Source: a virus (lineage: Duplodnaviria; Heunggongvirae; Uroviricota; Caudoviricetes). Taken from it: 23,140 nucleotides of DNA. Within the stretch, counting starts at the first letter, position 1. Each line of letters starts with the position of its first letter. This document shows positions 3,237-21,925 of the stretch, one piece after another. Location: IMG/VR virus record IMGVR_UViG_2869924733_000002; one strand, written 5' to 3'. Under the pieces are notes generated by a model. The model saw nothing but the letters and a program-made list of their open reading frames with translations, was not told where the DNA came from and ran no database searches. The position numbers and the translations under genes were made by a program.

Positions 3237-3518
3237 CTACCTTTGCCTCTTGCCGCCATTTAACCGGAAGGCGTTACCGTTCGGTTGCGCTATCCCCATG
3301 CGGTGTTGCGTTTCGGTAACAGCTTTATGCAGGTCGCCAAATTCCTCAACCTTCACGGGCGGGCGCTTCACGTTCTCCAGACACGTTTCACGGCGGCGCT
3401 TTATCCATTCCCGATCATCGTCCTCGGTGCATAACAGCATGACTTCCATCCATCGTGCGGCAGCTCTCCGGTATAGCCCTTTTGACTCCAGCTCTTCAGC
3501 TTTCCTGTCCCTTATCAT
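3237..3518 (-). CDS. PerC-family transcriptional activator-like protein (93 aa)
   Basis: N-terminal block KAEELESKGLYRRAAARWMEVM matches the recalled PerC/Pch-family signature. Assignment is from memory of the family motif. Confidence 0.5.
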   Translation of the reverse strand: MIRDRKAEELESKGLYRRAAARWMEVMLLCTEDDDREWIKRRRETCLENVKRPPVKVEEFGDLHKAVTETQHRMGIAQPNGNAFRLNGGKRQR

Positions 3519-3554
3519 TTCTGCCTCTCAGATTATATAGATAAGCAAAAAGGT

Positions 3555-7879: not shown

Positions 7880-7941
7880 TAGGCTGTGTCCCTTAATCAT
7901 CTGAGCTATAGTAACTGTCTGTTTACACAACATATTGAACT

Positions 7942-8391
7942 ATGGCTCGCTACGACCTTCCCGATGAGGCATGGACCATCATCAAGCCCCTGTTACCTCC
8001 TGAACCCGCCACACCACGGGCCGGACGCCCATGGGCTGAGCACCGTAAAATCATCAATGGCATGTTCTGGGTGTTATGTTCCGGTGCACCATGGCGCGAT
8101 TTACCCGAACGATATGGGTCATGGAAAACTGTTTATAACCGCTTTAACCGATGGTCAAAGTCAGGCGTGATTAATATTATTTTCAACAGGTTGCTTTCGC
8201 TACTTGATGCAAACGGCTTTATTGACTGGTCTGCCACCGCGCTGGATGGCAGTAATATCCGGGCGCTGAAATGTGCCGCCGGTGCTCAAAAAAACATCCC
8301 GATATCGACGGAGATAATGGGCCGGGTCGCTCTCGCGGCGGTTTTGGCACCAAAATCCATCTGGCAACAGACGGAAGTGGCCTCCCGTTAA
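7942..8391 (+). CDS. IS5-family transposase OrfA (N-terminal part)
   Basis: MARYDLPDEAWTIIKPLLPP... is the N-terminal domain typical of two-ORF IS5-family transposases. Overlaps OrfB in the -1 frame. Confidence 0.8.
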   Translation: MARYDLPDEAWTIIKPLLPPEPATPRAGRPWAEHRKIINGMFWVLCSGAPWRDLPERYGSWKTVYNRFNRWSKSGVINIIFNRLLSLLDANGFIDWSATALDGSNIRALKCAAGAQKNIPISTEIMGRVALAAVLAPKSIWQQTEVASR

Positions 8392-11379: not shown

Positions 11380-12057
11380 TTAGAATCCAAGCCCCCCAAC
11401 AAGACCAATAAGCCCACCACCAATAGCCCCGGCGACATTACCTATACCCGGAACAACGGAACCAAGTTGCGCACCCGCTAAAGCGCCTGATGCCGCCCCA
11501 CCAATACCACGCGCAAGACTGGATGGCTGCTGCGCCTGACCTGCACGAATAGCGCCAAGCCCCTGCAAGAGTTGCCCGGTATTATTGGCGTAGTTTTGCC
11601 CTGCTGTTGCCTGCCCTGATGCCGCATTCATCCCGACATTTAGCAGGTTTCCATAATTTTGCATTTGCCCACTGAGCCAATTGTTATAAAGCATGGGCGC
11701 AATGGAAGATAACTGGTTACTGGTAGCTGTTGAGCCAAGCCCCCCGGTAGCTTCTGCTGAGACAAGGTTCTGATAACGGGCCTGATCTGCCTGTGTTTTA
11801 TATAAACCAGAACCAAAGAAATCATTCGCGGCTTTATTCTGCCCTTCCAGAGTCATCAGTCCTTGCAGTTGTTGTAAAGCAGGCAATCCGACTTCTGCAT
11901 ACGGCTTGAGATTATTCATCACCGTATTCCACTGCTCGCGCTGCAAATCAATTGCCTGCTGCTGGGCCTTCGCCTGAGCTTTAGAGGCACCACCATCACC
12001 GCCTTTTTCGTATACGGCACGATTGAGATGTTTATGAGCTATATGGGTAATTAACAT
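11380..12057 (-). CDS. Hypothetical protein (225 aa) with Gly/Ala-rich glycine-zipper C-terminus; ejection-protein-like (tentative)
   Basis: C-terminal ...GIGGAASGALAGAQLGSVVPGIGNVAGAIGGGLIGLVGGLGF. Stop overlaps the next start (TAATG); start overlaps the upstream gene by 7 nt. Confidence 0.65.
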   Translation of the reverse strand: MLITHIAHKHLNRAVYEKGGDGGASKAQAKAQQQAIDLQREQWNTVMNNLKPYAEVGLPALQQLQGLMTLEGQNKAANDFFGSGLYKTQADQARYQNLVSAEATGGLGSTATSNQLSSIAPMLYNNWLSGQMQNYGNLLNVGMNAASGQATAGQNYANNTGQLLQGLGAIRAGQAQQPSSLARGIGGAASGALAGAQLGSVVPGIGNVAGAIGGGLIGLVGGLGF

Positions 12058-12512
12058 TCGCTGAATTCCTTATATTGTTGCCGAGTTAACTGATAAAGCG
12101 TTACGCCGACGGGTTTACCACATCTGATATAAGCATCATCAAGGTGACCAACACGGGTAGCGCCAAGCAAACGGATAATTGCCCGTCCATATTTCGTGGT
12201 GTCAGGAACCATAGTGATGCTGTTAAGGAATGGTGAGTTTTCGAGAAGCCATTTGCAGAATAATCGATGCCCTTGCAGTGCATATTCACCACGGAATCCG
12301 GGGTCGTACACCGCATGGCATTCAACAACGCTATGCCAGAAGTTACGCACTTCATGAACGCCAGCCAGCACTAATCCTTCGTAGATGCCGAGATATACCG
12401 CATCAGGCTTGATGTAGTACGTGTGCCCCGGCTCAACAATATTTTCGGTATTGCCTGGCTCGTTAAGAAAGGCCTGTAATCGCACAGGGTTATCAATAAA
12501 TTTTAGTTCCAT
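12051..12512 (-). CDS. Hypothetical protein (153 aa), first large gene of the operon
   Basis: ATG at 12512 lies 16 bp after the stop of the 53-aa ORF. Protein-like composition; no family recognised. Confidence 0.6.
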   Translation of the reverse strand: MELKFIDNPVRLQAFLNEPGNTENIVEPGHTYYIKPDAVYLGIYEGLVLAGVHEVRNFWHSVVECHAVYDPGFRGEYALQGHRLFCKWLLENSPFLNSITMVPDTTKYGRAIIRLLGATRVGHLDDAYIRCGKPVGVTLYQLTRQQYKEFSEC

Positions 12513-17810: not shown

Positions 17811-18001
17811 TTTTCACCCCCAAGAATTACCAGCTCGGCACGGGCATCGTTAACCAAAGATGAGCACGCTTTAATCGCATCCACGACATCAGTAGCGTCC
17901 ATTTCTTCAGCCGAAAGACTGACAGCAACCAGGACAGCCGCTGCTTGCTCGATTAATTGAAGTGCGGACGTAAGGCGAGGGGTATTAATTGAGTTATTCA
18001 T
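17807..18001 (-). CDS. Small hypothetical protein (64 aa; track ORF 17807..18058 trimmed to the internal ATG)
   Basis: [23 protein letters not shown]... The ATG at 18001 is preceded by a G-rich SD. Confidence 0.45.
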   Translation of the reverse strand: MNNSINTPRLTSALQLIEQAAAVLVAVSLSAEEMDATDVVDAIKACSSLVNDARAELVILGGEK

Positions 18002-19061
18002 TGGTTGCCCCCGTTTTTCCTGGCATTTCGCCACCTTCCAGCAGGAAATGAACGTCACGAACGGCGAGATCCAATATCGCGAGTAACGCCTTCAGTCTTT
18101 CGTCTCGTGAGGGAGAGTTGCTCACCAGAATGTCGTTAATCACTTCTGTCAGTGTGATGATCTGGCTTGTGCGTTCGAGGGGATCCATATGCACATCGTA
18201 GGTTTTAATCATGTGCCACCTCCATGCGGATACGACCAGCAAAAAAGCAGATGTGATCGCGCACCAGAGAACGGCGAGCATCGCGTTCAGACTCGGCAGC
18301 AATATGATGAATTTTGGCGGTAATTGTCGGGCAATCGCGGCGAACTGCGGCGATAATCCAGATAAATTGCGGTTTTTGGGTAGTGGTAGTAGCCAGCATG
18401 TGGCAGCCTCCTTGTACTGGGAGTTCTTCCCACCACCGGAGCTGCGAAACTCGCTGGTGGTGGACTGAACAGAGTTCGCAGTACCGGCGTACAAGGAAAC
18501 CGGCCAGCCTTTCGGCTGCCCTGTCCAGCCCACCATAATTTTGCAAGCGACGCGGATTATAACCGCATCACTGAAAAAAGTGTGAGTCTGGCTAACGGCA
18601 CAAAAAAAGACGCTCGGCGCGTCATGTGTCGCCTCGTACATTTCCGGGCTGCGAAACCCGGCACCCGTTTTATGAGGTGCCTTATAACCATAAACCGTGT
18701 TGCCGCATAACGGCAAGCTCTTTTTTATGGACTCCGAAAACTCACTATTGGAAGCACCAGATGCACAATACATCGCGCTCATTTCGTTAACGTCGCGCGT
18801 GTGGACGAAGGTTTTTGTGGAGTCACTACGCGAGCAGAGAAAGCCATCTACGACCAGAAATTCTCTGGCGCAGCCGCCGACCTTCTCAACGCTAACACCA
18901 TCGACCGTAATTTCTGACATAGTTAAGGCATCCGCTCCCACCACCAGAAAATGATAAACTTTGCTTGTATCTGCTGTATTAATGCCAGACTTTGCTGTCA
19001 TATTGCTGGATTTTGGCGACATACCAGCCAGTGAAAATATCTTCTTCTGGACGGTTAGCAT
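17994..19061 (-). CDS. Gene with a strong start at 19061; the 355-codon open frame has an ambiguous 3' end (see findings)
   Basis: ATG at 19061 with GGAGGT SD, 1 nt after the upstream stop. The N-terminal 150 or so residues look protein-like. The frame then stays open through a terminator-like hairpin (18601-18623), a structured region and an internal SD+ATG at 18212 (MIKTYDVH..., 72 aa). Confidence 0.4.
18205..18399 (-). CDS. Small hypothetical protein (64 aa) in an alternative frame
   Basis: AAGGAGG sits 7 nt upstream of the ATG at 18399 ([19 protein letters not shown]...). Its stop overlaps the internal ATG at 18212. Confidence 0.4.
   Translation of the reverse strand: MLATTTTQKPQFIWIIAAVRRDCPTITAKIHHIAAESERDARRSLVRDHICFFAGRIRMEVAHD
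18601..18623 (-). terminator. Putative intrinsic terminator or attenuator inside the long open frame
   Basis: Minus strand: GACGC-GCCGA-GCGTC hairpin followed by TTTTTTT. A TGA in another frame sits just before it. Confidence 0.35.
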
Positions 19062-19237
19062 TTGTTAACCTCCGCGAACTCCTTCATGAAGCGCGCCAGC
19101 GGTTGTACGCATGGCGATTGATACCCGTCGCGATAAAACGTCACTCGGTTGTGAGACACGCTTTCGACAGTAACGAGTGCTCCGTGGGCATCCTTGTAGC
19201 GTTTTTGAGGTTGTGGTGTTCCTGTCGGCTTAAACAT
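19055..19237 (-). CDS. Small hypothetical protein (60 aa; track ORF 19055..19324 trimmed to the internal ATG)
   Basis: GGAGGTGG lies 4 nt upstream of the ATG at 19237 (MFKPTGTPQPQKRYKDAHG...). The longer track start would overlap the upstream gene by about 95 nt. Confidence 0.5.
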   Translation of the reverse strand: MFKPTGTPQPQKRYKDAHGALVTVESVSHNRVTFYRDGYQSPCVQPLARFMKEFAEVNKC

Positions 19238-21783: not shown

Positions 21784-21925
21784 ACGCCACCCCGCGCCCC
21801 TAATTCTGACGGCTATGCCAGCCCGTAGGGGTGTACGGGTTTTCGGGGATCAGCCTAGACATAGCCTATTCTTTGTTCGTCTACATAAGTCTACTACCAT
21901 TGCTTAACACGGTCTATTCATACAG

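Follow-up and report, generated by a model that had tools for sequence, protein, structure and literature searches.

The long open frame and its start

On the minus strand of a 23,140-nucleotide stretch of viral DNA (Caudoviricetes; IMG/VR record IMGVR_UViG_2869924733_000002), the whole of which is referred to here as the window, an open reading frame (ORF) of 355 codons runs through a terminator hairpin, a gene in another frame and an internal start site. Why does this frame contain no stop codon? The initial annotation, made from the sequence alone, left the choice between a long protein, a frameshift and a structured RNA free of stops by accident. None of these proposals was sufficient alone, although each was partly right. 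By comparison with the satellite P4, the frame is probably the eta gene of the immunity region of a P4-like satellite or phage-inducible chromosomal island (PICI) resembling EcCIMP1, and it would be held open for the transit of ribosomes and not for the production of a folded protein.

The ORF (17994..19061; minus strand, as for all the features below unless stated otherwise) was present in the ORF list as annotated, with an ATG start and 355 amino acids (aa). The strong Shine-Dalgarno (SD) sequence claimed for its start was also found (GGAGG, 19073-19069, seven bases upstream of the ATG). The ATG (19061-19059) overlaps the end of the upstream DUF4222 gene (19055..19237) at its TAA stop (19057-19055; ATGcTAA), and the start of the long ORF is probably translationally coupled to that gene. 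At a stop probability of 0.047 per codon, a run of 355 codons would remain open by chance with P = 4e-8; not one of 20000 dinucleotide shuffles was free of stops. A GC-rich RNA had been among the suggestions, but the GC content of the region is 50.6%, which is not GC-rich.

Elements located inside the frame

A set of immunity-type elements was found along the frame. In the direction of transcription, the first is a predicted internal promoter, the analogue of P4 PLE (18687..18716), with a -35 box TTGCCG (18716-18711), an 18-nt spacer and a -10 box TATGGT (18692-18687). A corresponding pattern, TTGCCT-18-TATAGT-6, stands at the same position in P4, and the promoter blocks occupy fixed positions in 58 unique loci. 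Six nucleotides separate the -10 box from the 5' end (18680) of an isrK-like leader RNA (18603..18680; Rfam RF01394, 69 bits for a gathering score of 50), which corresponds to the P4 seqA region with its intrinsic terminator. Its seqA heptamer, TTCGCAG (18655-18649), is carried by the loop of hairpin 2. The hairpin and run of seven T residues pointed out by the initial annotation were recovered by the terminator scan (stem 18623-18609, then T7) and are the 3' hairpin and U run of this isrK element.

After a spacer (18541..18602), whose sequence and length vary between loci but which the long frame always crosses in phase and without a stop, comes a C4 antisense RNA, the homologue of P4 CI RNA (18453..18540; Rfam RF01695, 81 bits for a gathering score of 45). 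The seqB heptamer of this RNA, CTGCGAA (18481-18475), lies in a single-stranded segment past C4 hairpin 2. In the window, C4 contains no stops in any frame. The next segment (18400..18452) combines the seqC target, TTCGCAG (18448-18442), with the leader of an icd gene, whose SD is AAGGAGG (18413-18407). In the computed fold of this leader, the 3' part of seqC pairs with the icd SD in a hairpin of -24.8 kcal/mol (z = -3.3); translation of icd may accordingly be governed by CI pairing or by the passage of ribosomes.

The 64-aa alternative-frame ORF with an upstream AAGGAGG that had been noticed is indeed present (18205..18399) and encodes an Icd-like protein, the homologue of P4 kil (NCBIfam NF033153, 70.4 bits for a cut-off of 25), in a frame that differs from that of the long ORF. 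The frame finally ends with a nested 72-codon gene (17994..18212). The internal start site of the initial annotation belongs to this gene: its SD, GGAGGTGG (18223-18216), and its ATG at 18212 are read as WRWHM in the long frame, as had been stated. Thus, a single stretch of DNA combines a predicted promoter with two RNA genes, the target of an antisense RNA and an open frame, and selection would act on its translatability and not on its peptide.

Conservation of the open frame

Loci related to the window were collected from viral contigs by means of an RNA-level pattern of C4 hairpin 2, which introduces no bias towards any frame, and yielded 99 unique cores. An earlier 15-base GC-rich C4 pattern, applied to genome contigs, had given almost only chance matches in high-GC genomes. 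The long frame was open across C4 in 95 of the 99 loci, against 11 and 30 for the other two frames; across the whole isrK–C4 span, it was open in 78 loci, against 0 and 3. An isrK-like element was recognized in 89 loci, and in 83 of these the long frame spans both isrK and C4. The start codon is placed upstream of the internal promoter in 79 of these 83 loci and abuts the stop of the upstream ORF in 57 of the 79.

Between the classes of isrK–C4 spacing, the differences in length are multiples of three, and a single phase of the encoded motif A.YDAP is kept throughout. An apparent reading of isrK in different phases in the different spacing classes was traced to an artefact of alignment on the T run, the phase of the peptide motif being identical. 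When the loci were grouped into 20 clusters of less than 80% identity, the spacer contained no stop in the long frame and 9-10 stops in each of the other frames. Because a single frame is open across the loci, the variable spacer is stop-free and the spacings vary in threes, the openness of the frame is, as far as sequence comparison goes, maintained by selection. The idea that a structured RNA lies behind the open frame was therefore correct in so far as isrK and C4 are inside it; the lack of stops is not accidental (83/89 loci, indels in multiples of three).

The arrangement found in the window is shared by several genera and was encountered in about 480 genomes of E. coli. Among seven close islands, the frame was intact in all, whatever the label given by the Prokaryotic Genome Annotation Pipeline (PGAP).

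Constraint on the RNAs

The RNA elements showed strong constraint of their own. The fold computed for C4 agrees with the Rfam model (minimum free energy -45.8 kcal/mol, z = -4.9). In 51 distinct sequences, 97.9% of the C4 stem cells were paired, compared with 30-48% when the partner strand was slid, and compensatory changes were found in 14 of the 27 C4 pairs; none of 500 shuffles equalled the pairing or covariation values. The exact reverse complement of seqB was present both in the loop of hairpin 2 of the locus's own isrK and at +56 downstream in 75 of the 89 loci. Matching between seqA, seqB and seqC defined at least 12 specificity types, and only 1 of 979 non-cognate combinations matched.

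Comparison of the promoter-isrK-C4-seqC cassette (18400-18716 in the window) with that of loci L244 and L247 gave about 70% identity between flanking genes that are 98-100% identical. The immunity module appears, on this evidence, to be exchanged as a unit, like the immunity regions of lambdoid phages.

Constraint on the peptide

The peptide behaved differently. Between sister islands, the ratio of nonsynonymous to synonymous substitution rates (dN/dS) was 1.0-1.1 over codons 116-221, which are about 70% identical, compared with 0.1-0.3 in the flanking genes; this portion looks like a swapped immunity module without amino-acid constraint. The AlphaFold2 model of the long ORF had a mean predicted local distance difference test score (pLDDT) of 33.7 and a predicted template modelling score of 0.22. 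Residues 1-299 were all below 50, with values of 24-33 over codons 116-221, and the nested 72-aa gene (54-72) was the only part of the model to exceed 50. No match of the long ORF with a solved structure (PDB) was obtained. It is the openness that is conserved between these sequences, not the peptide. Furthermore, the loci do not display a conserved full-length 355-aa protein with a synonymous pattern throughout: the frame measures from 279 to 505 codons and there is no synonymous excess in its central third. Of the long-protein proposal, what stands is that the frame is, by analogy with P4, very probably translated; what does not is the behaviour of a conserved protein (dN/dS about 1 in the cassette, pLDDT 34).

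These data bear directly on the strongest competing explanation, in which the ORF encodes a genuine multi-domain Ash or Bro-network protein with a regulatory or antirepressor function, its gene merely happening to contain the RNAs. Existing annotations speak for it. In most genomes the RefSeq name of the long ORF is 'ash family protein' (WP_000958750.1), the Pfam family PF10554 (Phage_ASH) matches aa 124-232 with 99.2 bits for a gathering threshold of 26, PHROG families are labelled 'transcriptional repressor', and Phage_ASH has been treated as a Bro-network domain (PMC10111431). The ORF is also conserved, at 45-84% identity, in E. coli, Klebsiella, Raoultella and Pluralibacter, and its codons 1-115, where dN/dS is below 1, are free of stops while the other two frames have 6 and 8.

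However, the conserved blocks of this 'protein' coincide with the promoter, isrK, C4 and seqC: the PF10554 match corresponds to positions 18692..18366 of the window, that is, to the promoter, isrK, the spacer, C4 and the seqC/icd leader, where dN/dS is about 1. The peptide of the spacer is not conserved, and some of the N-terminal codons are read from the antisense strand of a terminase fragment described below. The C-terminus is not the same in all islands: it may correspond to Icd, to the 72-aa gene, to a 64-aa gene or to an integrase-like gene. The 'repressor' label itself descends from a legacy cI ORF of P4, where the immunity factor is an RNA; in P4 (NC_001609; 8168..8584 and 7888..8175), PF10554 matches the ORF recorded as 'cI gene product / transcriptional repressor', which lies over the CI RNA. 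A genuine Ash protein was thus considered unlikely. Judged by its substitution pattern and by the structure model, PF10554 would represent a translated regulatory cassette and not a folded domain.

The family has also been used as an 'epsilon (Ash)' marker for P4-like satellites (PMC8628076). The identification of PF10554 with P4 epsilon was rejected, as epsilon is PF25738 (170 bits) and is not matched by PF10554. The 'epsilon' marker of that study (PMC8628076) would actually detect the immunity cassette.

Comparison with the P4 immunity region and proposed mechanism

The same elements, in the same order and on the same strand as in the window, are found in P4 (NC_001609), with isrK at 8692-8615 and C4 at 8507-8420. 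Both regions share the isrK and C4 Rfam matches, the complementarity between seqA, seqB and seqC, and an Icd-like kil downstream; in both, the start codon of the long frame precedes the internal promoter, a predicted one in the window, and is coupled to the gene before it. The P4 open run measures 651 nt, or 199 codons from 'MMM', of which the last 65 are Icd-like (kil, 76 bits). The two regions differ in several respects. In P4, eta ends in frame with kil, whereas icd of the window is out of frame and the terminal nested gene is the unrelated 72-aa ORF. The seqB specificity is CTGCGAA in the window and TTCTCAC in P4. Finally, the distance from the start codon to isrK is 385 nt in the window but 79 nt in P4, a value which is also the median of the loci.

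Eta and kil of P4 are reportedly the subject of work by Forti et al. in 1999 (J Bacteriol 181:5225), and the P4 immunity region, PLE-seqA-cI (CI RNA)-seqC, is said to have been treated by Sabbattini in 1995 and Briani in 2000. According to a paper that summarizes the study of Forti et al., P4 Kil is a shortened form of Eta, the complete Eta is made only from the upstream late promoter in coupling with the alpA homologue, and translation of eta prevents termination (PMC10111431). The RNAs isrK and C4 are recognized as structural homologues of seqA and CI RNA (PMC3632133, PMC4825925).

On this model, the transcripts initiated at the internal promoter would be untranslated through this stretch, because the start codon of the long frame lies upstream of them. 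They would end at the isrK terminator or be processed to CI/C4 RNA, whose seqB would pair with seqA and seqC and enforce early termination, the replication genes staying off. Upon helper induction, the upstream alpA operon would fire, and ribosomes entering at 19061 would cross the leader, the terminator, C4 and seqC. Their transit would block the formation of the terminator, antisense pairing and the access of Rho, and the replication genes would be read through; it could also free the sequestered icd SD for initiation. Since ribosome transit would be what prevents termination, selection would keep the frame open without keeping the peptide. The mechanism as such is already known from P4, and what the window adds is a shifted icd junction and a 5' extension with a pac-like fragment.

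Several points weigh against this interpretation. The continuous frame is missing in 6 of the 89 loci that possess isrK, and it is therefore not obligatory. The loci are phylogenetically related, and their counts consequently overstate independence, although the spacer result still holds after clustering. Codons 1-115 gave dN/dS values of 0.27-0.85, from few substitutions, and a weakly constrained peptide is possible there. The alignment behind the AlphaFold2 model was shallow (30 sequences). The predicted internal promoter matches 8 of the 12 consensus positions, and a generic promoter scan gave no call at this place. As for the anti-termination role, it would be carried over from P4 by way of a secondary summary; the elements, their order and complementarities, the conservation of the frame, the coupling of the start and the lack of peptide constraint come from the loci studied here.

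The icd junction and the 3' end of the frame

Among the loci, icd is nested in the long frame, as in P4, in 53 cases and out of frame in 5: the window, its near-twin L001, L153, L147 and L167. The difference resides in the spacer between the icd SD and ATG, which has lost 1 nt in L153 compared with L149 and has gained 2 nt in the window. This small indel displaces icd from the long frame, which consequently does not meet the icd stop and continues passively through icd and the 72-codon gene. By contrast, in the sister island L246, the flanks of which are near-identical, the long ORF has 279 codons and ends at the icd stop, and the 72-codon gene is separate (3333..3551). The frameshift proposed by the initial annotation is thus retained as an evolutionary indel relative to the P4 layout, and is attributed neither to an error of sequencing nor to a proven programmed event. 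A programmed shift of ribosomes out of the long frame and into icd was also considered and set aside, since inspection by eye of the interval from C4 to the icd ATG revealed no slippery motif.

Depending on the locus, the frame ends at the icd stop, just past icd (L153), at the stop of the 72-aa gene (window) or at that of the next gene (L249, 417 codons). In two viral contigs, L147 and L167, it passes icd out of frame and enters an integrase-like gene of about 330 aa, reaching about 490-505 codons.

The part of the frame that crosses icd deserves separate consideration. Of 43 unique P4-type sequences (loci L124-L243), 29 (67%) have no stop in the +1 frame of icd, and the survival of the window frame across icd is near what would be expected passively from such sequences. 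Selection holding the frame open across icd in window-type loci was ruled out, since the +1 frame is already open in these 29 P4-type loci. The mean number of stops in icd over the 43 sequences was 0.47 in the +1 frame and 2.7 in the +2 frame; nothing known requires this difference.

These figures give some weight to the view that the window carries a decayed eta, in which a frameshift broke the nesting of kil in eta, anti-termination is defective and the extra length has no meaning. The P4 arrangement is by far the majority (53 loci against 5), the difference from it is an indel of 1-2 nt, and the extension over icd does not exceed the passive expectation. Nevertheless, the frame is undamaged from its start to the end of seqC, the part that matters in P4, and ribosomes would still be able to cross the whole region. 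The window type has also recurred by independent indels (-1 in L153, +2 in the window) and is found, as noted above, in more than one genus and in hundreds of E. coli genomes. Decay of eta was therefore judged quite improbable, and the reading as an eta gene held open for ribosome transit is kept.

Inconsistent labels for the same DNA

The cassette would explain why automatic pipelines flip between 'ash family protein' and a pseudogene plus an Icd-like protein. L001 (NZ_CP169023) and L002 (NZ_CP010371), whose DNA differs by one base, carry in PGAP/RefSeq either a full 'ash family protein' or an 'ash' pseudogene together with an Icd-like protein. Incompatible labels were likewise found in L249, L250 and L251, sometimes with an additional 'DNA-packaging protein' pseudogene, while the 355-codon frame is intact in all. 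'Ash family protein' is annotated in thousands of enterobacterial genomes.

Such labelling, together with the two RNA genes inside the ORF, the absence of stops from all frames of the window C4 and the frequent opening of the icd +1 frame, might suggest a spurious ORF, in which gene callers join a structured RNA and an icd alternative frame that both lack stops, but this is very improbable in view of the chance value and shuffles given above, the one frame open in 83 of 89 loci where the others are not, the indels in threes, the stop-free variable spacer, the strong SD with its coupled start and the experimental precedent of eta translation in P4. For the same reason, namely that one specific frame is conserved open, the view of the ORF and Pfam Phage_ASH as nothing more than an artefact of translating RNA was abandoned.

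In lambdoid phages, Stx-converting ones included (for example LC567823, KU927493, NC_028449 and LC710661), the isrK-C4 cassette was seen under ORFs annotated as antirepressor, regulatory, transcriptional regulator or hypothetical. The RNAs themselves are annotated in only a few of these records.

The 5' extension and a pac-like fragment

The 5' extension of the frame, which accounts for roughly 300 extra nt, contains, on the plus strand, a 107-nt fragment homologous to a P22-type small terminase gene (gene 3) at 18807..18913 (87-88% identity), which opens with base 1 of the 22-bp pac site. It is antisense to the long ORF and lies within codons 50-85. In P22-pbi (AF527608), the match covers positions 4-110, where the record carries the feature 'pac site'. 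The pac-like 22-mer of the window (18807-18828, plus strand), GAAGGTTTTTGTGGAGTCACTA, shares 16 of 22 positions with pac. The pac core AAGATTTATCTG is not fully matched in this 22-mer (9 of 12 positions), which is also one mismatch away from the published regular expression for pseudo-pac sites (PMC10996546).

Variable sites of the 5' extension fall on codon positions 18/9/19, and third positions do not dominate. Within the fragment, the islands differ at 1 site of the 22-mer and at 18 sites in the other 85 nt (about 20%). EcCIMP1-like islands are described as having no terminase genes and as being packaged by an unknown mechanism (PMC11773190). From its sequence, the fragment may be a captured packaging signal of such a terminase-less island; if functional, it would serve helpers with a terminase of the P22 gp3 type. 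Phage Kapi1 was rejected as the source of the fragment, its terS being of another type without similarity to it.

A broader proposal, which we put forward tentatively and with rather less than even confidence, combines both aspects: PF10554 would be a translated RNA cassette and not a protein family of the usual kind, and the long 5' extension would owe its existence to the capture of a P22-type pac region, which would explain the packaging of EcCIMP1-like PICIs.

Related systems and gene neighbourhood

The immI operon of phages P1 and P7 has the order c4 antisense RNA - icd - ant. With the window, it shares a C4-family RNA that is derived from the transcript of its targets and lies directly upstream of an icd cell-division inhibitor gene. 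It differs in that, in the window, an isrK/seqA terminator leader precedes C4 and the antirepressor-type gene (antA) is upstream and not downstream. The whole cassette of the window is enclosed in a long frame that is very probably translated.

In the isrK-orf45-anrP region of Salmonella Gifsy-1, the isrK leader exists as short terminated and long read-through isoforms, the C4-like RNA STnc1160 lies downstream, and the distal genes depend on the interplay between the RNAs (PMC4825925). Gifsy-1 departs from the window in its downstream genes and in that the small RNA switches on the synthesis of an antiterminator at the translational level; nor is a long ORF across the region described in it.

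Around the long ORF of the window, the gene order is integrase, AlpA, AntA/B antirepressor, DUF4222, long ORF, small genes and primase-helicase. That of the E. coli PICI EcCIMP1 is int, alpA, antirepressor, 'Ash family protein' and primase, its helper being Kapi1 (PMC11773190). This order is common to the window island, whose likeness to EcCIMP1 rests on the order and on a stretch of about 590 bp that is 81% identical between the window (11923-12512) and Kapi1 (27948-28536; Kapi1_055/056, head-morphogenesis-like). Sequence comparison of the Kapi1 stretch thus supports the identification as an EcCIMP1-like island, although the terS type of Kapi1 differs from that of the pac-like fragment of the window.

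By analogy with P4, the alpA operon would feed ribosomes into the long frame. A promoter scan of the gap upstream of alpA gave no match. In the gap between the integrase and DUF6387 genes, upstream of the alpA operon, an int-alpA RNA was recognized by Rfam at 21798-21865 (minus strand; 46.7 bits for a gathering score of 35.8).

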